Part shown: piece by piece, positions 54,554-64,000 of the stretch
How positions within the stretch are numbered: the stretch's first letter is position 1
How the letters are laid out: each line of letters opens with the position of its first letter
From: Dehalococcoidia bacterium
GTDB taxonomy: Bacteria; Chloroflexota; Dehalococcoidia; UBA2979
Direction of reading: 5' to 3'
Assembly: GCA_020845735.1 (NCBI GenBank)
Contig: JADLFF010000034.1
Location: 10,884 to 74,883 of the forward strand
DNA: 64,000 bases
Program-made: the position numbers and the translations under genes
The notes under the pieces: model-generated
Seen by the model: only the letters and a program-made list of their open reading frames with translations
The model's database searches: none
What the model was told of the DNA's origin: nothing

Positions 54554-56266
54554 CTACGCGGCCCGCCGGAAGATATCAGGGTCGACCGGGACCTGGTCGA
54601 GGGTGAAGCCCCGCATCTGCGGGTCGCTCCGCCAGTAGGCATCCCACGACGTGGACACCTCCGCGAGCGCCTGCACCACGGACACATCGAGGCGTCCGTA
54701 GCTGACCTCCGCGCCGATGATCGCGAGCGCCTCCTCGCGCGTGCCACCTCGGCGGTACGGCCGGTCGGTGACCAGCGCATCGTAGTAGTCGGCCACCATG
54801 ATGATCCGAGGCGTCAGCGGCACGGCATCGCCCGCGAGCCCCAGGGGGTAGCCGCTCCCGTCCAGGCGCTCGTGGTGGAGGTACACGCCTTCCACCACCT
54901 CGGGGGCGAGCCCCACAGCCGCGAGGATGTCGTTCCCGACGACGGGGTGGACCTGGATCTGGCGGCGCTCCTCCTCGGTGAGCGCTCCGGGCTTGAGGAG
55001 CACCTCGTCGCGCACGCCGATCTTCCCGATGTCGTGGAGGTAGCCACCCACCTGGAGGTGCAACTGCTGCTCGGTGTTGAGGCCGAGGCACTGTCCGAGC
55101 AGGGACGCGAGGTGGCCCACCCGGAGCGAGTGCCCTCGGGTGTACGGATCCCGCGCATCGATTGCGGACACCAGCGAGGCGATGGCGCCGAGGTGCTGGT
55201 CCTGCAGCGCGCGGGTCATCCGGTCGAACGCGTCGCTCAGCTCGCCGATCTCGTCGCGGCGTTGCAGCCCGACTCGGGCCGTGAGGTTGCCGCCCGTGAC
55301 CGTCCGGCTGGTGCGCACCAGCTGGTCGAGCGCGTTCGTCAGGCGGCGGGCCACGCGCGCTCCCACCATCAGCGTCACGGCGATCGCGCCGAACAGCAGG
55401 AGCGACAGCTGGATGCGCGCGTCCTCGGTGGTCTCCCCGAGGAAGTCCGTGGGAAGCGCGACGGCGAGCGATCCGACCGGCTCACCCCGCAGCACCAGGT
55501 CGGAGTGGAGTTCCCGGTACGTGCGCTCGCCGAGGGCCACGGTGGTCATCTCGCCGGTGGGCGCCGCCGCTCCGGCCAGGGGGTCCTCCGCGCGGGCGAA
55601 CGACGTGGTCGCGAGGATCCGCCCGTCCCGGTCGAACGCCGTGACGTCCGCCAGCGCCTCGCGATGGGCTGCGAGCAGGGCGGTCGCCAGCCGGCTGCTG
55701 ACGAGGACAGCGCCTACGAGTTGCTCGCCCGCGCGCACCGGTGCGACCGTGACGATCCACGCCTCGCCGTCAACCTCGGCAAGTTCGATGAACTTGTCGC
55801 CCTTCTCATCGCTGGTCCCCGCAAGCACGCGCTCGATCCCCTCGAGGGCAGGCGTGCCGGCGGTGACGGGAGCGTAGGGCGCACCGGATGCCGCCGGTCG
55901 CACGAGCCCAAACTTGAGGACTCCCGCAGCGTCGAGCAGCTCGACGCGCTCGATCGTGGTGTTCGCGGCCAGCGGGCGCACGAGGGCGTCGAGCGTCTCC
56001 GGGCGTGCGCGCAGCGCTTCCGGGACTCCCGAGGTGAAGGCGATCGCGCGGGCGGTCTCGAGGTGGGCGCGCTCTCGGCGCACCAGCGACTCCGCCGCGA
56101 CGCGGCTGCCCTCGACCAGGTGCCCGACGAACCTCGATTCGGCCGATCCCGCGTAGAGCCCGGTGAGTGCGTACGCCCCCACGGCTGACGTCAGGATGAC
56201 GACCGCTGCGAACGGCAGGATGATCTGCCAGCGCACGGACACAAACGGCCTGAGTACCCTCAGCAC
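54554..56266 (-). CDS. HD-GYP domain phosphodiesterase with N-terminal double-TM sensor domain and HAMP
   Basis: HSLRVGHLA, GGYLHDIGKIGV, HHERLDGSGYP (HD-GYP). HAMP-like segment ARRLTNALDQLVRTSRTVTGGNLTARV. Confidence 0.85.
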   Translation of the reverse strand: MLRVLRPFVSVRWQIILPFAAVVILTSAVGAYALTGLYAGSAESRFVGHLVEGSRVAAESLVRRERAHLETARAIAFTSGVPEALRARPETLDALVRPLAANTTIERVELLDAAGVLKFGLVRPAASGAPYAPVTAGTPALEGIERVLAGTSDEKGDKFIELAEVDGEAWIVTVAPVRAGEQLVGAVLVSSRLATALLAAHREALADVTAFDRDGRILATTSFARAEDPLAGAAAPTGEMTTVALGERTYRELHSDLVLRGEPVGSLAVALPTDFLGETTEDARIQLSLLLFGAIAVTLMVGARVARRLTNALDQLVRTSRTVTGGNLTARVGLQRRDEIGELSDAFDRMTRALQDQHLGAIASLVSAIDARDPYTRGHSLRVGHLASLLGQCLGLNTEQQLHLQVGGYLHDIGKIGVRDEVLLKPGALTEEERRQIQVHPVVGNDILAAVGLAPEVVEGVYLHHERLDGSGYPLGLAGDAVPLTPRIIMVADYYDALVTDRPYRRGGTREEALAIIGAEVSYGRLDVSVVQALAEVSTSWDAYWRSDPQMRGFTLDQVPVDPDIFRRAA

Positions 56267-56604: not shown

Positions 56605-57579
56605 CTACACGCAGCGCACGAAGAAGGGCGTCGCCCCCTCCAGCGAGGCGGGGAGGCCCGCGTTGGCAGCCGGCGGCGCGCCGGCGATCATGATGCGCCA
56701 GGTCCCCTGCTGCAGCAGCGCCAGCGTCTCGACAGAGCATCCGCCCGAGGCGAGTGCGCCCGTCAGCTGCGACACGGGCTGGGCCGCGCCCGGACTCGTC
56801 ACCAGCAGCCCCGCCGAGGACGGGCGCGGCGCCGGTCCCACGAACGGGGTGCTCGGTGCCGTGGCGGTAGCGGTTGCCGTCGCCGTGGCGGTGGCCGTGC
56901 CGGTCGCTGTGGCGGTGGCGGTCGCCGTCGAGGTGGCCGTGGCTGTGCTTGCTGCGGCGAGCTGCGCTGAGATCGTGAGCGGGTCGAGCGGCAGTCCGGC
57001 GGTGTAGAACCCCGCGAACGCCTGGGCGCCCGAGGCCGTCAGCGTGGACTGGATGCCCGTCCAGTTCACGACGTTCGTGCCGGGCACAGCGGAGGCGCCC
57101 GTGAGGGTCGCGAGGGTCACGCCCGTGTACGGCACAGTCGTGGCCGACTCGAGCGACTTGCTGGTGATGTCGGCGACCAGCGACCCGCTGCCGCCCGAGA
57201 GCTGCACCCGCACGTTCGACACCACCATGTCGAGCTGGCCCGAATGCCCCTGGAAGCGCACGCTCCCCGAGAACGTGAACGATCCCACGCCGGTGCTCGC
57301 GTCATACGTGCCGCTGGCGAGTGGGAAGCGGTAGGTTCCGTCGCCGTTCACCGAGGCGCCGCCCTGAGGGCTCGTGCTGCCCTTCGCGATCGGCCCCACG
57401 ATGTAGCTGCGGAACGACTCCTTGATCCCCCAGTTGAGGTAGCCGCCCGTCGTCGTGACCTGCGCCGCCTCGAGGGGTGCCATCATCGCGAGGCCGCCCA
57501 CCAGGCCGGCGACAGCCACCACGATCACCGCCACCGACTGCCGCAGGCGCGACGCGCGCGCCATCGACTCGTGTCTCAT
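56605..57579 (-). CDS. htaA: HtaA-domain (heme-binding) secreted protein with (Thr-Ala)n linker and unknown C-terminal domain
   Basis: Signal/anchor, GGYLNWGIKESFRSYIVG...FSGSVRFQGHSGQLDM..SNVRVQL...GAQAFAGFYTAG (HtaA pattern), then TATATSTATATATATGTATATATATATATA. ATGA overlap with the hmuV stop. Confidence 0.8.
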   Translation of the reverse strand: MRHESMARASRLRQSVAVIVVAVAGLVGGLAMMAPLEAAQVTTTGGYLNWGIKESFRSYIVGPIAKGSTSPQGGASVNGDGTYRFPLASGTYDASTGVGSFTFSGSVRFQGHSGQLDMVVSNVRVQLSGGSGSLVADITSKSLESATTVPYTGVTLATLTGASAVPGTNVVNWTGIQSTLTASGAQAFAGFYTAGLPLDPLTISAQLAAASTATATSTATATATATGTATATATATATATAPSTPFVGPAPRPSSAGLLVTSPGAAQPVSQLTGALASGGCSVETLALLQQGTWRIMIAGAPPAANAGLPASLEGATPFFVRCV

Positions 57580-58460
57580 TCGGATTCCCCTTTCGCGGAG
57601 CCAACCAGCAAGCGTTCGCGTAGCTCCTCGGTGCGGTCGTCCCCTTGCCCGCTCGCGGCTGGCGACCGCGCGGCCACCACCACGGGCGTGCCGGTCCGCG
57701 GATGGGGCAGCACGTCCAGCTCGTGCTGATACACCGAGGTCAGAATCGTGTCCCGGAGGACGCTCGACGGCGGTCCCACCACGACGAGCGCCCCTCGAGC
57801 GAGGAGCGCGACGCGGTCCGCGTACGCCGCCGCCAGCCCGAGGTCGTGCATGACGACGACCGCCGCTGCACCGCCCTCGACCTGCCGGCGCACGCCCTGC
57901 ATCAGCAGCTCCTGGTGATGCACGTCGAGTGCCGCGGTCGGCTCATCGAGGAGGAGCAGGCGCGCACGCTGGGCAACAAGCCGGGCGAACGCGACTCGGG
58001 CGCGCTCACCTCCTGACAGCGACGTGAACTCCCGCGAGGCAAGGTCGGCCGCGTCCGCCTCGCGGAGGGCTTCCGCGACGATCGCTTCGTCCTCGGCCGG
58101 CGTGGTGTGCGCGGCCCACGGCGCGCGCGCCATCCGCACGACCTCGGCGACGGTGAACGGGAACGCGAGGTCGAACTGCTGAGGCAGCACCGCACGACAC
58201 CTCGCGAGGTCGCCGCGGCGCCAGCGCCGGAGCGGCGCGCCGTCCACCAGGACCTCCCCCGCGGTCGCAGGAAGGTCGCCCGCGAGCACGTGGAGCAGCG
58301 TCGACTTGCCCGCGCCGTTCGGACCGACCAGCGCCACCACCTCACCGGCGTGCACCTCGAGGTCGACGGCCTCGAGCACGAGGTGACTGCGTTGCTTCGC
58401 GGCGACGCCGCGCGCCTCGACGAGCGCGTGCGCTGATCGAGCTGGCGTGCTGGCGGTCAT
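57576..58460 (-). CDS. hmuV: heme/iron-siderophore ABC transporter ATP-binding protein
   Basis: Trimmed to ATG 58460 (ATGA overlap). GPNGAGKSTLL (Walker A), LSGGERARV (signature), LLLLDEPTAALD (Walker B). Confidence 0.88.
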   Translation of the reverse strand: MTASTPARSAHALVEARGVAAKQRSHLVLEAVDLEVHAGEVVALVGPNGAGKSTLLHVLAGDLPATAGEVLVDGAPLRRWRRGDLARCRAVLPQQFDLAFPFTVAEVVRMARAPWAAHTTPAEDEAIVAEALREADAADLASREFTSLSGGERARVAFARLVAQRARLLLLDEPTAALDVHHQELLMQGVRRQVEGGAAAVVVMHDLGLAAAYADRVALLARGALVVVGPPSSVLRDTILTSVYQHELDVLPHPRTGTPVVVAARSPAASGQGDDRTEELRERLLVGSAKGESE

Positions 58461-59560
58461 GCCCAGCCGCCCTGCCGCGAGCGCGTCCGCCGCAGGAGCC
58501 AGAAGAACAGCGGGCTGCCGAGCAGCGAGGTGAGCACGCCGAGGGGCAACTCTGCCGGCGCCGCCGCCACCCTCGCCACCAGGTCCGCGCTGACCAGGAT
58601 GAGCGATCCACCGAGGGCCGAGGCGGGGAGCAGGAGCGTGTGCCTCGGCCCCGCGACCATCCGCACGAGGTGCGGCGTCACGAGGCCGACGAACATCACG
58701 ATGCCCGAGACGGCGACCGCGGCCGCCGTCAGCAGCGCGACGACGGTGAGGCAGGTGATGCGCAGCCGCTCCACGTCCACTCCGAGGTGCGCCGCGGGCC
58801 GCTCGCCCAGCGCAAGCAGGTCGAGCTGCCGTGCCTGCGTGAACGCGAGCACGGTCGCCACCACGCCCACCGGGAACACGACGGCGACTCGGGCCCACGT
58901 GGCGCCGCCGACGCTTCCGAGCGTCCAGAAGGTGATCGAACGCAGCTCGCCGTCCTGCGCGAAGAACATGAGCAGTCCGATGATGGCCCCGGTCATGGCG
59001 TTCACCGCGATGCCCGTGAGGACCAGCGTGACCACCTCGGTGCGGCCGTCGGCCCGCGCCGAGGTGTACACGCCGAAGACCGTGACGAGTCCTCCGAGGA
59101 ACGCCGCGCCGGTGATGCTCCACGTCCCGCCGCTGCCGAGGCCGAGCACGATGTGCGCCACCGCCCCGACCACCGCGCCGGACGACACGCCGATCACGCC
59201 CGGCTCCGCGAGGGGGTTCGCAAACGCGCCCTGCATCACCGCGCCGGCCACCCCGAGGGATCCCCCGACGATCAGCGCGAGCGCGATGCGTGGGAATCGG
59301 ATCTCCCACAGCACCTGGTCTCCCATGTCCGCCGGCACCGGCCCGATCGCGAGGCCCGCGCGATGCGCGACAGAGCCGAGCACCTCGGCGGGTGTGAGGG
59401 CGTACGCGCCCGCACCGGCCGCGACGACCACGGCCACGCAGAGCGCCACCGTGAGCCCTCCGAGCAGCAACGCGGGGCGCATCCGGCGAATCGACGGCAC
59501 GACGCGCGGGACCACGGCGCGCACGGCCGGCGGTTGATGTGGCTTTGCGATCTGCGTCAC
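58457..59560 (-). CDS. hmuU: FecCD-family heme/iron ABC transporter permease
   Basis: 367 aa polytopic. RFPRIALALIVGGSLGVAGAVMQGAFANPLAEPGVIGVSSGA. GTGA overlap with the hmuT stop. Confidence 0.88.
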   Translation of the reverse strand: MTQIAKPHQPPAVRAVVPRVVPSIRRMRPALLLGGLTVALCVAVVVAAGAGAYALTPAEVLGSVAHRAGLAIGPVPADMGDQVLWEIRFPRIALALIVGGSLGVAGAVMQGAFANPLAEPGVIGVSSGAVVGAVAHIVLGLGSGGTWSITGAAFLGGLVTVFGVYTSARADGRTEVVTLVLTGIAVNAMTGAIIGLLMFFAQDGELRSITFWTLGSVGGATWARVAVVFPVGVVATVLAFTQARQLDLLALGERPAAHLGVDVERLRITCLTVVALLTAAAVAVSGIVMFVGLVTPHLVRMVAGPRHTLLLPASALGGSLILVSADLVARVAAAPAELPLGVLTSLLGSPLFFWLLRRTRSRQGGWA

Positions 59561-60570
59561 GGCCGCGCTCCGGCACTCGGCGCGGCCGTGCGCGGGGCGT
59601 GCAACCCCTCGATCAGCGCGCGGAGGGCGACCGGTGTGCGCGGGCCGAACGCGAACAGCAGGCTGTCCTCGAGGGTGACGATGCGGCGATCGCGGCCCGC
59701 GGGCGTCTGCGCGATGCCGGGGATTTGCACCAGCCCCTCGATGCCCCCGACAGACTCGAGGCCGGTCGTGGTCATGAGGATCACCTCGGGCGCCGCGCGC
59801 ACCAGCGCCTCGCTGCTGATCGGGGTGAACGGCCGGTCGAGGCCCATCGCGGTGCCGGCGTCCGTGGCTCCCGCCGCGACGATCATCGAGTCGGCGCCGG
59901 ACCGCGGCCCGCCGATGAGGTACACGCCCGCGTGTCCTCGCATGTAGAGGAACGCGACGCGCGGCGCGACCGCCGGCGCCTGCACCTCGTCGCGCGCGGC
60001 TGCCATCGCGGCCTCGGTTCGCGCGGCGAGGTCCTCACCCGCCGCCGGTACGCCGAGGGCGGCCGCGATCGTGCGGATGCGCGGCACGACGTCGTCGACG
60101 CTCTGCGGCTCGGCGAAGCGCACGACGGGGACACCGACGTTGCGAATGTGGTCGATCGCACTCGCGGGGCCCGTGTCCACCGAGGCAAGGACGAGCGTGG
60201 GGTGCAGCGACAGCACGGACTCCGCAGAGACGTCGTGGGCGCGGGTCACGAGGGGAATCGCCTCGGCCTCCGGGAAGGTGGCCGTGATGTCGCGCCCGAC
60301 GACCCGATCGCCCAGCCCGAGCCCGAACACGATCTCGGTGACGTTGCCCCAGAGGGAGACGATGCGCGTGGTGTCGGTGATCGTCACCTCGCGACCGTCC
60401 GCAGAACGCACCGTCACGGGCAGGGCGGGCGCCACGGGCGTGCCGACGACGACCTGCGGCTGAGGCGTCGCCGCGCCAACCCCGACCTCGGGCGGCCGGG
60501 CGGCGCCGGTGGTGGTGCAGGCGGCAGCAACGAGCGCCCAGGCCAGCACGGCCACGCGAGGGAAGCTCAT
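59557..60570 (-). CDS. hmuT: heme/hemin ABC transporter substrate-binding lipoprotein
   Basis: Trimmed to ATG 60570 (ATGA overlap with the upstream gene). Lipobox LVAAAC; class III SBP pattern RIVSL.GNVTEIVFGLGLGDRVVG. Confidence 0.8.
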   Translation of the reverse strand: MSFPRVAVLAWALVAAACTTTGAARPPEVGVGAATPQPQVVVGTPVAPALPVTVRSADGREVTITDTTRIVSLWGNVTEIVFGLGLGDRVVGRDITATFPEAEAIPLVTRAHDVSAESVLSLHPTLVLASVDTGPASAIDHIRNVGVPVVRFAEPQSVDDVVPRIRTIAAALGVPAAGEDLAARTEAAMAAARDEVQAPAVAPRVAFLYMRGHAGVYLIGGPRSGADSMIVAAGATDAGTAMGLDRPFTPISSEALVRAAPEVILMTTTGLESVGGIEGLVQIPGIAQTPAGRDRRIVTLEDSLLFAFGPRTPVALRALIEGLHAPRTAAPSAGARP

Positions 60571-61976
60571 CGCACCGTCTCGGTCCGCCGCCGCCGGAGG
60601 AGCATCGCCGAGTACGCAAGCAGCACGAGGGTCGAGACGAGGCCGGCCAGCGCGAGCGGCACGATGTCGAGGCGCTCGCCTCGGGCGGTCTCCGTGGCTG
60701 CGGCGGCCTCGTCCGCGACAGGCGCGGAGGCAGCGGGCTCCGAGGCGCTGGCGGGCGCGGGCTCGACCGCGGCCGGAGGCACCTCGACGAACGACACCGG
60801 GACGAACAGCTCGACCTCGGTCGCGCGTACGCCCTCCGTGTCCGCGCGCGTGCCGAGGGCGCACGCGACGACTCGGCAGTCGGTCTTCGCATCGATGATG
60901 GGCTTCACCGAGAGCGTGACGTCGAACGCGCCGTCGTCGCCGTAAGGCCGCGCGAGCGCGCGTGCGTACTCGGGCGGATTCGAGGAGATCCACGCCGACG
61001 CCGCGGTGCCGGCGGTGCAGGGGCCGGGCTTGCCGCCATCGGGCGGGACGGCGCAGATCGCGACGAACACACCTCGCGAGGTGTCGTACCCGGTGCCGCG
61101 CACGCGCACGTCGGCGCCCCCGGCGTCGAGGGCGATATCGCCCTCGACGCGCAGTTGCGCTCCCCCTCGAGTTGCGCCGCGCGAATCGGCATCGAGGAGG
61201 GCGGGCACTTCGGGCCGCACGGCAGGCGCCGCCGCGACGAGCTGCGCGGGCGCCACGGCCGGCGCCTCAGCGGGCGCGATGGTGCTCGAGACGGTGCTCG
61301 GGATGGCGGGCGCGAGGACCTCACGCGGGATGTCCGGAGGCGCACCGGCGGCGCTGACAACCTCCGAGGCAGGTGGTGTGGCGAGCGCAGCGGCCACGGG
61401 TGGGGCATCGGCTCCCGCGAACGTGATCGGGACGAAGACGTCCTGCGAGCGATCGCTGGTGCGGCGGTGGTCATTGCGCGAGACGACGGCACAGCGCACG
61501 ACGCGGCAGTCGGTCGTCGGGTTGATCTGCGGACTCACGGCGAGGGTGAACGAGAACGAGCCGCCCGCCTCGTACGGCGTGGCGAGGCCGTCGCCGTACG
61601 ACGGTGTGTCGGTGGCGGGCGAGACCCACCTCGCCGCCCCCGAGGAGCCCTCGAGGTCGATGTCGCCGCCACACGGCGTCGGGAGCTGGTTGAGCGCCGG
61701 GATCACGCAGAAGGCGACGTAGAGGCCCTTCTCCTCGTTGAACCCGGTGCCGCTCACGGTGACGACCTCGCCACCGGCGCCGAGCACGGCCTTCGACACG
61801 GTCAGCGTGCGGCGGCCGTCCGAGGCGGTGCGTCCGTCACTCGAGAGCCGCGTGATCGGAGCGACCAGCGGGTCGTCGGCCACCTGGGCGGCGGTCGTGC
61901 GCGGCTCCATCACGAGGCCGGTGAGGATGAGCCCGACGACGACGATCGCGCCGCGGTAGAGCGAGCTAATGGCCAT
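60567..61976 (-). CDS. uncharacterised secreted, C-terminally anchored protein with two homologous approximately 125-aa Cys-pair domains (neocarzinostatin/Ig-like by eye)
   Basis: Signal peptide. Internal repeat aa 56-187 and 273-396 sharing V.V.GTG[FY]...[KR]G[LV][YF]VA[FI]C..P...PC....W[VI]S...LA.PY..G.F..TL.V.P.I...TDCRVV.CA...FVP[IV].F. Pro/Ala linkers. C-terminal helix plus RRRR. First gene of the hmu operon. Confidence 0.75.
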   Translation of the reverse strand: MAISSLYRGAIVVVGLILTGLVMEPRTTAAQVADDPLVAPITRLSSDGRTASDGRRTLTVSKAVLGAGGEVVTVSGTGFNEEKGLYVAFCVIPALNQLPTPCGGDIDLEGSSGAARWVSPATDTPSYGDGLATPYEAGGSFSFTLAVSPQINPTTDCRVVRCAVVSRNDHRRTSDRSQDVFVPITFAGADAPPVAAALATPPASEVVSAAGAPPDIPREVLAPAIPSTVSSTIAPAEAPAVAPAQLVAAAPAVRPEVPALLDADSRGATRGGAQLRVEGDIALDAGGADVRVRGTGYDTSRGVFVAICAVPPDGGKPGPCTAGTAASAWISSNPPEYARALARPYGDDGAFDVTLSVKPIIDAKTDCRVVACALGTRADTEGVRATEVELFVPVSFVEVPPAAVEPAPASASEPAASAPVADEAAAATETARGERLDIVPLALAGLVSTLVLLAYSAMLLRRRRTETVR

Positions 61977-62067
61977 GGTTAGACTAATATCAGTTCGTAG
62001 GACATACTAGCAACTGCCATTCTATTCCACTAACTCTCACCAAATCGATGAGACGAGAGGACCCCCG
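61974..62067. promoter_or_regulatory. AT-rich divergent control region: IdeR/DtxR-like palindrome GGTTAGACTAAT overlapping a candidate minus-strand promoter (-35 TTGCTA, 18 nt, -10 TATTAG)
   Basis: The stretch from 61975 reads CATGGTTAGACTAATATCA, matching 13/19 positions of TWAGGTTAGSCTAACCTWA (by eye). The -10 ends 7 nt before the ATG at 61976 and no SD is present, so the transcript may be leaderless. The hmuO gene has a GAGAGGA RBS. Confidence 0.35.
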
Positions 62068-62724
62068 ATGCAGAGCGCAGTCGACATCGCCGACGCGGCC
62101 ACCTCGTTCTCGGCGGCGCTGCGCAGCGCCAGCCAGGCGGCCCACCGTCGCGCCGAACAGTCGGCGTTCATGCGCAACCTCGGGCGCTCGCAGGTCTCGC
62201 GAGAGCAGTACATCGACTTCGCCGCGCAGCAGTACTTCGTCTACGCCATCCTCGAGGAGGCGGCGGCGGTCTGGCGCGACGACCCGCTGCTCGCGCCGAT
62301 GCTCAGCCGCGACCTCGCGCGCGTCCCCGCCATCGAGGAGGACCTCGCGCACCTGATTGGCGACGACTGGCGCGCTGCCATCTCCGCCTCCGAGCCCACC
62401 CGCGCCTACTGCGCGCGCCTCCTCGAGGTCTGCTTCGACTGGGCGGGCGGCATGGTCGCGCACCACTACGTGCGCTACATGGGTGACCTCTCCGGTGGCC
62501 AGATCATCCGTCACACCATCGAGCGCACCCTCGGGTTTGACGCGACCAACGGCGCGCGCTTCTACGAGTTCGACCGGGTCCCGGATCTGGCCGCGTTCAA
62601 GGGCTCGTACCGCGGCCACCTCGACGCCCTGCCGTGGCCGGCCGCCGAGCGAGCGCGCGTGATCGAGGAAGTGCTCCACGCCTACGAGCTGAACACGCGC
62701 ATGCTCGAGGTGCTGGGCGGCTGA
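62068..62724 (+). CDS. hmuO: heme oxygenase (HO-1/HmuO family)
   Basis: 218 aa. AHRRAEQSAFMRNL (proximal His region), YVRYMGDLSGGQIIR, F..VPD...FK..YR..LD. Confidence 0.88.
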   Translation: MQSAVDIADAATSFSAALRSASQAAHRRAEQSAFMRNLGRSQVSREQYIDFAAQQYFVYAILEEAAAVWRDDPLLAPMLSRDLARVPAIEEDLAHLIGDDWRAAISASEPTRAYCARLLEVCFDWAGGMVAHHYVRYMGDLSGGQIIRHTIERTLGFDATNGARFYEFDRVPDLAAFKGSYRGHLDALPWPAAERARVIEEVLHAYELNTRMLEVLGG

Positions 62725-62788: not shown

Positions 62789-64000
62789 TCAGTGGTCGCC
62801 GGTGCCCTCGCGCTCCACGGGCGCGATGCCCAGTCGCGCGCAGGCCTCCTGGTACATCCGCACGACCTCCGCGCGGATCTGAGCGCGCTCGGTGACGGGC
62901 TCGGACCACGGCACGCGCACGACCGACTGCGCGCCAGCCTCGACGACCGCGAACTCGATGCCGACGGCGTCCATCCCCGTCATCAGCGCGGACGACGCCG
63001 TGGGACGATCCCCCAGGCCCTGGCAGATCGCCAGCGACTCCTCGGGATGGTCCTGGTTCATGTGCCGCTTGACGGCTTCGATGACCTCTGGTGCGAACAA
63101 CGCACGCTCCTTTCGCTGACGGGCCGACCGTCGCTGCATTCGAGCTCCAAGCCACGTCAGCCCTCCGAGGGGGATCAGCGCCGCGAGGGGCGCCCACGGC
63201 ACGGCCCAGACGCTGCCGCTCGCGAGTGCCTGCGGCACCACCACGCCGTCGTTGCCGACCACGGCCGGCGACACCTCGAGGCGCGTGGCCAGCCAGAACA
63301 ACGGCGGCATGCGGTCGAGCGCCACGGTCGTCGTGTGGGCGGCGCCCGGCAGCAGCTCGGGCAGCTCGTCGAGCACCTGCTGCCGCACGGGGATCCCGAG
63401 GGGACCACTGACCGTCGCCTGCTGCGCGGCCCGCAGCCGCACGTTCCCTCGATTGCGCACGGTGTACGAGGCCTGCAGCATCCCGCGCCCGAACAGCGCC
63501 TGCGGCTCAAACCGGATCCCGAAGTCCTCGACGACCAGGTCCGGACGCAGGGGGCCGTTGACACGCAGGTACACGCGCGTGCCGACGCGCAGGTCGATCT
63601 TGACGGCATTGCCCGCCGCGTCGCTGGCGTCGGCGGTCCGGGAGGCGACGATGCCGCCCGCGTGGTCCCCCGGCGTCGCGTCCTGCGGAACGCGCAGCGA
63701 GAACGGGAGGAGGACGCGCTGCCTTGGCGCGAGGTCGACCCGCGCGTCGAGGTCGATCCACGAGCCCACGTCTCGGGGCTGCTGCCCCGCAGGCAGGAGG
63801 TCGAAGCCGCCCTCGGGCGTGGTGAAGGCGTCGCTGGCGTACACGCGCAGCGACAGCGGCTGCTCGCCGAGGTTCTGCACGCCGACGTAGTCGACGACGG
63901 TTGAGCCGCGTGCGAGGTCGTAGGTGAGGTTGGGGCGCGTCTCGGTGCCCGTGGCATTCGAGGGCTGGATCGACCAGCTCGCGTTGCCCGGACCTCCCTG
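62789..64000 (-). CDS. single-pass membrane protein: extracellular DUF916-like surface domain + TM + cytoplasmic DUF2470 (heme-utilisation type) domain; N-terminus beyond window
   Basis: The frame stays open upstream of the track's start (GTG 63880) to the window edge (...GNASWSIQPSNATGTETRPNLTYDLARGSTVVDYVGVQNLGEQPLSLRVYASDAF...). TM segment VWAVPWAPLAALIPLGGLTWLGA followed by RMQRRSARQRKER. C-terminal VIEAVKRHMNQDHPEESLAICQ...MTGMDAVGIEF...VRVPW.EPV.ERAQIR.E.V.M. Confidence 0.7.
   Translation of the reverse strand, partial: QGGPGNASWSIQPSNATGTETRPNLTYDLARGSTVVDYVGVQNLGEQPLSLRVYASDAFTTPEGGFDLLPAGQQPRDVGSWIDLDARVDLAPRQRVLLPFSLRVPQDATPGDHAGGIVASRTADASDAAGNAVKIDLRVGTRVYLRVNGPLRPDLVVEDFGIRFEPQALFGRGMLQASYTVRNRGNVRLRAAQQATVSGPLGIPVRQQVLDELPELLPGAAHTTTVALDRMPPLFWLATRLEVSPAVVGNDGVVVPQALASGSVWAVPWAPLAALIPLGGLTWLGARMQRRSARQRKERALFAPEVIEAVKRHMNQDHPEESLAICQGLGDRPTASSALMTGMDAVGIEFAVVEAGAQSVVRVPWSEPVTERAQIRAEVVRMYQEACARLGIAPVEREGTGDH

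Follow-up and report, generated by a model that had tools for sequence, protein, structure and literature searches.

The 64,000-nucleotide stretch analysed here (the window), from contig JADLFF010000034.1 of a Dehalococcoidia bacterium, carries a heme-uptake locus whose first gene encodes a membrane-anchored surface protein with two domains of the neocarzinostatin (NCS) type. We refer to this protein as NCSL (NCS-like). The gene very probably belongs to the heme-uptake system, and with slightly better than even confidence we read its product as a surface module that captures heme and relays it to the binding protein HmuT, forming a dedicated extracytoplasmic part of the HmuTUV importer. We favour this reading because the NCS fold carries one hydrophobic ligand, the N-terminal class of domain has invariant Tyr, His and Trp residues, the extracellular linkers are long, and the domain has repeatedly been fused to HmuT. 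An initial annotation, made from the letters of the DNA, had already proposed a surface module of a heme system here; each testable part of that proposal held, and it stands, supported, as the best hypothesis. Databases already label some members of the family 'neocarzinostatin apoprotein domain-containing protein', and what is new is therefore the function rather than the fold assignment. In the literature searched, we found no characterisation of the hmu-linked NCS-like family, the sole mention being one made in passing by a 2026 paper on a Jiangella genome.

The open reading frame (ORF) of 469 residues is present as initially annotated. Its product begins with a signal peptide, with a hydrophobic core at residues 10-23 by hydropathy and a helix at residues 5-22 in the AlphaFold2 (AF2) model. 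Two domains follow, separated by a linker that holds 15 Pro and 21 Ala in 68 residues, and the chain ends in a hydrophobic helix followed by RRRR; all of these elements had been described from the sequence and each was seen again in sequence, hydropathy and model. The two halves are homologous, with a local BLOSUM62 score of 267 against 43±7 (maximum 67) for 300 shuffles, and residues 56-187 and 273-396 share 40% identity across 123 positions. Their four cysteines stand in matching columns (90/102/157/162 in domain 1 and 308/320/367/372 in domain 2), and every one of the motifs GTG[FY], W[VI]S, PY, TDCRVV.CA and FVP[IV].F quoted in the initial annotation was found. The predicted disulfides of domain 1, read from the register of its cysteines with NCS, are Cys90-Cys102 and Cys157-Cys162. 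From sequence and model, we predict that NCSL is exported by the Sec pathway and held in the membrane by its C-terminal helix and RRRR stop-transfer tail, with the two domains displayed outside on flexible Pro/Ala linkers.

A full-length AF2 model was built with an alignment of 50 homologues. Its mean predicted local distance difference test (pLDDT) score is 79, both domains lie mostly above 90, and the linkers are disordered, linker 1 falling below 50. Domain 1 modelled alone reached a pLDDT of 88.8 and a predicted template-modelling (TM) score of 0.85. When this model was compared with the PDB by Foldseek, the 13 best matches were all enediyne apoproteins, namely macromomycin, NCS and its engineered variants, C-1027 apoprotein and apokedarcidin, at probability 1.00 and TM-scores of 0.62-0.73. 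Beyond these the matches fell sharply to generic nanobody-like immunoglobulin (Ig) folds with TM-scores below 0.46. The likeness to neocarzinostatin, first suggested by eye, was thus returned by structure prediction, and the full-length model again matched enediyne apoproteins. Two-domain structural matches (arrestin, a single-chain antibody fragment, transglutaminase) had root-mean-square deviations of 11-22 Å, as generic tandem-Ig arrangements, and were ignored. A resemblance to HtaA or NEAT domains had been denied at the outset, and the 50 best Foldseek matches of the domain-1 model include no structure of either kind. The Pfam HtaA model gave no match to NCSL at E<=1, compared with 7e-52 for the last gene of the operon, and no Pfam match to NEAT was found.

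At the level of sequence the relationship is faint. The PF00960 score is 12.8 bits for the whole protein and 16.4 bits for domain 1 alone, against a curated cut-off of 25, and NF040680 scores 23 bits against 86; 17 of 28 family domains match PF00960 weakly. The profile of the N-terminal domain class (type A, defined below) matches C-1027 at E 0.14, and hhalign against NCS gives E 0.006 at a probability of 6%. On their own these values carry too little weight; we therefore base the fold assignment on the comparison of structures and rejected a sequence-level proof of NCS homology. PF11054 ('Sporozoite surface antigen') scored 27.4 bits with the whole protein, just over its cut-off, 19.3 with domain 1 and matched one of 28 family members; we judged it an artefact of the Cys pattern.

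The hhalign register nevertheless shows where domain 1 departs from NCS, whose query sequence was identical to 1nco over all 113 residues. The GxG strand, Cys90 and the DC..C pair fall on NCS G23-G25, C37 and C88/C93, and Tyr86 falls on NCS Asp33. Relative to NCS, domain 1 has a 37-residue insertion after the second Cys, which carries W117, Y127 and Y135, and a loop after the second disulfide that is 5 residues longer and carries D169-H170 and D175-R-S-Q-D179, whereas the hairpin that supplies F76, F78 and W83 in NCS is much shorter. This argues for an NCS-like fold in which the ligand cleft has been rebuilt. In the 1NCO structure we take Asp33, Gly35, Cys37 and Trp39 to face the chromophore cleft and the 98-107 loop to form its rim. 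The enediyne apoproteins (neocarzinostatin, macromomycin, C-1027 CagA, kedarcidin and actinoxanthin; PF00960) thus share with NCSL the Ig-like beta-sandwich, which in that family has seven strands and flanking hairpins, the places of both disulfides, as aligned (C37-C47 and C88-C93 in NCS), the GxG strand and the terminal hydrophobic strand. They carry one hydrophobic ligand of ~600-850 Da. Unlike NCSL, with its tandem domains, linkers, anchor and heme operon, they are small secreted single domains encoded in enediyne polyketide synthase (PKS) clusters.

A word-indexed search returned 205 relatives of NCSL. A profile search of 1.84 billion cluster representatives (clusters at 50% identity) gave 954 matches at E<=1e-3 and 287 at E<=1e-30, and the family is distributed over Actinomycetota and Chloroflexota. 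Of 250 members retrieved, 151 are single-domain and 90 two-domain proteins; a few carry three to six domains. We sorted the domains by position in the first 120 relatives, calling first and single domains type A and second domains type B, and the two classes differ in the residues they conserve. In type A, Y86, W117, D169, H170 and D179 are kept in ~100% of sequences, and K83, Y127 (89-93%), Y135, D175-R176-S177-Q178 and a GGGxDxxGxxG loop in ~90% or more. Domain 1 of NCSL has every invariant residue of the type-A signature, KG[IV]YVA[FL]C ... PxPCGGG ... W[IV]S ... DC..[VA].C ... R.DH.R..DRSQD..[VI]P[VI].F. Type B keeps the fold residues and the four Cys but has lost K83 and the six-residue D..G loop, which is absent from domain 2 of NCSL. 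At the position of the His, type B has Asp in 68% of cases and Thr in the window protein (T380); the Tyr86 position is kept in only 70%, and is Phe here (F304). The hmu-linked NCS-like domain family was defined operationally by the type-A signature together with a gene adjoining or fused with hmuT or hmuUV, and the window gene combines the signature with an ATGA overlap with hmuT. Some relatives also contain Cys-less domain copies (GIYVVFGP...W...), as in locus L048 (10785-12248) and protein P0051 (aa 190-425); the copy in L048 lies in a 487-aa protein with an HtaA-like N-terminal motif, directly after a DUF2470 gene.

The junctions NCSL/hmuT, hmuT/hmuU, hmuU/hmuV and hmuV/htaA are all 4-nt overlaps, which makes the five genes one translationally coupled unit; the coupling of NCSL to hmuT had been noted before. 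The identity of the transporter is indicated by its binding protein. Eleven of 14 PDB sequence matches of HmuT, the best included, are deposited or recognisable as heme- or hemin-binding (the three weakest are not), led by 5gj3 (1e-59) and Corynebacterium glutamicum HmuT 5az3 (3e-50) and followed by BhuT, Yersinia HmuT, 2r7a and HutB. Together, hmuTUV, the genes for HtaA and heme oxygenase and a gene with WxLIP and DUF2470 domains form a complete heme acquisition and degradation island.

Linkage to heme transport extends across the family. We scanned one genome per species, which gave 126 relatives, kept the best 80 loci (69 from Actinomycetota and 11 from Chloroflexota) and scored their neighbours by tblastn with the window's own proteins. 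The Actinomycetota loci include Acidimicrobiia, Nocardiopsis, Thermobifida, Nonomuraea, Actinomadura, Allokutzneria and Nanopelagicales. hmuT was matched in all but six loci, and these six are short contigs ending within a few hundred bases of the NCS-like gene; the counts for the other genes are given in the table. The NCS-like gene stands in three arrangements with hmuT: upstream of it on the same strand, divergent from it (16 loci) or sharing one ORF with it (11 loci, 9 of them from Chloroflexota). In Actinoalloteichus, a four-domain member adjoins a heme oxygenase-hmuTUV operon. In Micromonospora, a single-domain member leads hmuTUV and is flanked by genes for HtaA, WxLIP, DUF2470 and heme oxygenase. 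In the Nanopelagicales locus L048 the member is a lipoprotein that joins a linker to a single type-A domain, and its gene overlaps the DUF2470 gene that comes next. IdeR/DtxR-like boxes matching 14-17 of 19 consensus positions, such as TTAGGTTAGCCTTACCTCA in L077, lie upstream of the NCS-like genes in L077, L048, L076, L053 and L060.

An HmuT-like part is present in 19 of the 250 retrieved relatives. In some of the single-ORF cases the transmembrane helix and the lipobox are kept between the NCS-like and HmuT parts, so that such ORFs could be processed into two proteins. In the direct fusions (P0082, L037) a signal peptide and a type-A domain are joined to the heme-binding protein by a Pro/Ser linker of ~60 residues that contains no hydrophobic span. 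Their linker keeps a relic lipobox-like 'AAGC' with no hydrophobic region before it (L037 9737-11419; P0082, P0086, P0107, P0237), a sign that these fusions arose by merging two adjacent genes. In other members the domain is combined with an N-terminal DUF2470 or with surface modules of the Ig and WxL types. An apparent HtaA fusion, P0246, was rejected: its HtaA part ends in its own LARTG motif, transmembrane helix and basic tail before a second signal peptide begins, and we therefore read it as read-through of two adjacent genes. ORFs with two NCS-like domains, a transmembrane helix, a lipobox and HmuT are similar to P0246, and only the single-domain fusions are counted as unambiguous.

Features of the NCSL gene and the surrounding heme locus (window positions). 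The last column gives the number of related loci with a tblastn match.
Feature	Position	Strand	Evidence and remarks	Loci
NCSL gene (NCS-like surface protein), operon gene 1	60567..61976	-	ORF, 469 aa; 205 homologues	
Signal peptide, aa 1-30, putative cleavage after T-A-A, before Q31	61887..61976	-	Sequence and hydropathy	
Domain 1 (type A), aa 42-190, NCS-like beta-sandwich	61407..61853	-	AF2, Foldseek, conservation by class	
Linker 1, Pro/Ala-rich, aa 191-258	61203..61406	-	Composition; pLDDT <50	
Domain 2 (type B), aa 259-400, fold and Cys pattern as domain 1	60777..61202	-	Sequence, AF2	
Linker 2, Ala/Pro/Glu-rich, aa 401-437 (37 residues)	60666..60776	-	Composition; disordered in AF2 model	
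C-terminal transmembrane helix, aa 438-460	60597..60665	-	Hydropathy; AF2 helix 439-468	
Cytoplasmic tail RRRRTETVR (RRRR = 461-464) and stop codon	60567..60596	-	TGA overlaps hmuT ATG	
hmuT, heme substrate-binding lipoprotein, lipobox LVAAAC	59557..60570	-	Pfam Peripla_BP_2 2e-31; PDB matches	74/80
hmuU, FecCD-type permease	58457..59560	-	GTG start overlaps hmuT stop (GTGA)	70/80
hmuV, ATPase	57576..58460	-	ATG overlaps hmuU stop	68/80
htaA, HtaA (CR-domain) hemin-binding protein, final operon gene	56605..57579	-	Pfam HtaA 7e-52; ATGA overlap with hmuV	33/80
AT-rich divergent intergenic region between NCSL and heme oxygenase genes, presumed to hold promoter and regulatory region	61977..62067	.	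Sequence	
Heme oxygenase (HmuO type), divergent	62068..62724	+	Pfam Heme_oxygenase 1e-55	50/80
Neighbour gene, open to window end: WxLIP/DUF916-like extracellular part, one hydrophobic span, C-terminal DUF2470	62789..64000	-	Pfam, hydropathy	33/80 (DUF2470)

The HtaA protein of the operon has one CR domain and, by hydropathy, no C-terminal membrane anchor, and it may therefore be released in the manner of a hemophore or bound to the wall. Its CR domain is followed by a (Thr-Ala)n repeat linker (~aa 215-245) and a C-terminal region of ~75 aa with two Cys and no family match. In the gene at the window end, DUF2470 is recognised at 3.8e-17 by Pfam, and related heme loci contain the domains of this gene again. 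In the Micromonospora locus (L084) WxLIP and DUF2470 are encoded by separate genes, and in P0011 and P0121 DUF2470 is fused instead to two NCS-like domains. Such combinations suggest that surface heme proteins are linked across the membrane to a cytoplasmic domain related to HugZ. About 340 bp past the end of htaA and on the same strand, the window encodes a membrane sensor with dCache_3, HAMP and HD-GYP-type (HD_5) domains (54554-56266, -).

Direct heme binding by the type-A domain is, on sequence and model, a little more probable than its opposite. We propose that the N-terminal domain would bind hemin in a remodelled counterpart of the cleft that in NCS holds the enediyne chromophore; the NCS chromophore and heme are similar in size. 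The hemin could come free from the medium, be drawn from hemoproteins or be supplied by the co-encoded HtaA. The candidate iron ligands are Tyr86, aligned with Asp33 of the NCS cleft, and His170, carried by the lengthened loop that follows the second disulfide; Trp117, Tyr127 and Tyr135 from the 37-residue insertion may contribute. Domain 1 would then pass hemin to the lipoprotein HmuT, HmuUV would import it, and its degradation would fall to the heme oxygenase encoded divergently. Lacking the His of type A, and here the Tyr as well, domain 2 more likely serves for spacing, for docking or as a relay of low affinity. That the protein binds heme, through which residues, and in which direction it would pass hemin on are what we infer from these patterns. 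Comparable chemistry is used by HtaA, through Tyr (PMC12494546), and by HmuT, through His/Tyr (PMC4926363).

Two families of surface heme proteins offer functional parallels. The HtaA, HtaB and ChtA proteins of Corynebacterium (PF04213) resemble NCSL in having a signal peptide, repeated extracellular domains, a C-terminal transmembrane anchor and a gene directly upstream of hmuTUV, the last being the layout of the HtaA-type gene in C. diphtheriae. Their fold is unrelated to that of NCSL, which has no Pfam HtaA match, and a true HtaA gene stands at the other end of the NCSL operon. The NEAT-domain Isd proteins of Firmicutes also present Ig-like beta-sandwich surface domains, often in tandem and with subfunctionalised copies, and these domains relay heme to the lipoprotein of an ABC importer. 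They show no sequence or structural match to NCSL, are anchored by sortase rather than by a transmembrane helix and have no disulfides. HtaA and NEAT proteins are functional analogues only. The CR domains of HtaA, HtaB and ChtA bind hemin via an iron-tyrosyl bond and relay it inward (PMC12494546).

The closest PDB sequence to the type-A profile is ThiX of C. glutamicum (7qhm_M, E 7.7e-11), in which the Tyr before the first Cys, the Trp, the four Cys and the D-H pair are kept. ThiX is an NCS-fold lipoprotein and a subunit of the cytochrome bcc-aa3 supercomplex, chain M of 7QHM/7QHO, whose soluble domain is unresolved and whose function is unknown (PMC8795186). Like NCSL it is surface-anchored through a linker, here Ser/Thr-rich, and its lipoprotein-linker-domain layout is that of the Nanopelagicales hmu-linked member in L048. 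It differs in having a single domain and a lipid anchor at an N-terminal lipobox; the signal peptide of NCSL carries no lipobox Cys, and its two domains are anchored by a C-terminal transmembrane helix. ThiX is confined to Corynebacterium (22 clusters). Its monocistronic gene has no conserved neighbours of heme or thiamine function in C. suranareeae and C. diphtheriae; the neighbours of two such genes (L085 7001-7576; L086 7001-7558) are unrelated, with isocitrate lyase in one species and dnaG in another. The name 'thiamine biosynthesis protein X' looks historical, and a DtxR/HrrA regulon preprint makes no mention of ThiX. With its soluble domain unresolved in 7QHM and no conserved gene neighbours, ThiX was dropped as a guide to the ligand.

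Several observations weigh against heme capture by NCSL. The DH...DRSQD motif is also kept in ThiX and in a paralogue outside heme loci, the 819-aa Phytohabitans surface protein P0068 (L083 8001-10460), where two type-A domains flank an Ig I-set domain and a large middle region; the motif may therefore be structural, or a site for Ca2+ or another metal, and not specific to heme. The neighbours of P0068 are MMPL, PAP2, LPG-synthase and glycosyltransferase genes and not heme genes, so that, set beside the Actinoalloteichus and Micromonospora members, hmu linkage is overwhelming but not exclusive. The 80 loci are those of the closest relatives, and the linkage counts leave out the most divergent quarter of the family. 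With HtaA already in the operon, a second heme binder is not strictly needed. The placing of Y86 and H170 in a pocket is a candidate assignment, drawn from the alignment to NCS and from the cleft residues of 1NCO. Finally, the best IdeR/DtxR box in the intergenic region of the window, at 61974, matches 12 of 19 positions and is tied with seven other window sites, which is chance level, and we dropped it.

These points lend most to the main rival reading, in which NCSL binds no heme and serves as an accessory, a wall-spanning scaffold or docking protein that places HmuT, HtaA or donor hemoproteins near the transporter, with the polar motif as a structural or Ca2+ site or a protein-protein interface. 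The hmu linkage and the fusions also fit this, the motif is rich in Asp and Gly as in Ca2+ loops (GGGxDxxGxxG, D169, D175, D179), the relative ThiX is a docked subunit of a protein complex, and outside heme loci the domain also turns up within large surface proteins that carry modules such as Ig and WxL. We nevertheless consider a scaffold unlikely. The NCS fold is a carrier fold for small ligands, an invariant Tyr and His are typical of heme-uptake proteins, and direct fusion to the binding protein favours hand-over of a substrate. Moreover, roughly half of the loci with full flanks (judged by eye rather than by a scripted count) lack an HtaA within 10 kb and so offer no alternative candidate for the receptor.

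A different ligand, whether another tetrapyrrole or a metal (Fe, Cu or Ca, for example), or a role in sequestering excess heme protectively at the surface rather than taking it up, appears improbable. Enediyne apoproteins are protective carriers of a reactive ligand, transporters of the Peripla_BP_2 type also carry siderophores and cobalamin (weak matches), and ThiX occupies the position of a Cu superoxide dismutase in the mycobacterial supercomplex. However, the closest solved relatives of HmuT are deposited as heme- or hemin-binding, genes for heme oxygenase, HtaA and DUF2470 recur across the loci, and only one His is invariant, with neither Cys nor Met free to build a Cu site. An enediyne-type chromoprotein or an immunity protein of a secondary-metabolite cluster is effectively excluded: the weak PF00960 and NF040680 matches, and the false 'other' biosynthetic cluster flags that NCSL-type genes cause in genome-mining tools (PMC13608877), stand against scores under both curated cut-offs, a two-domain, membrane-anchored protein inside a heme operon, a shortened hairpin where NCS forms one cleft wall, other loops that are enlarged, and a 64-kb window with no enediyne cluster or PKS-sized ORF (none exceeds 952 aa, and the largest are housekeeping genes).

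To our knowledge, surface heme capture in monoderm bacteria has so far been put down to two families of domains, the NEAT domains of Firmicutes and the CR/HtaA domains of Corynebacterium, and we know of no described receptor for most environmental Actinomycetota and Chloroflexota with hmuTUV. If NCSL captures heme, a third and structurally unrelated receptor domain, with ~950 sequence clusters, would fill this gap. It is possible, if somewhat short of probable, that the type-A NCS-fold domain is a new structural class of heme receptor beside NEAT and CR/HtaA and the main high-affinity capture device for HmuTUV in environmental Actinomycetota and Chloroflexota, including Nanopelagicales, with the rare enediyne apoproteins as a specialised offshoot of a far larger group of ligand carriers at the cell surface. 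The neocarzinostatin fold would then gain a physiological role beyond antibiotic carriage, with a hint at the origin of the enediyne apoproteins, and NCSL-type genes would be better annotated as components of heme uptake. The reach of the system would include Nanopelagicales, whose relatives reportedly are heme auxotrophs living on picomolar hemin, and abundant freshwater lineages would acquire a concrete gene; the authors of the acI heme-auxotrophy preprint call for heme uptake systems to be characterised (10.1101/2021.01.11.426183). As the best hypothesis, the NCSL system is a heme relay of the monoderm surface whose fold is familiar from another setting, and it is relevant to a large, mostly environmental group of bacteria.

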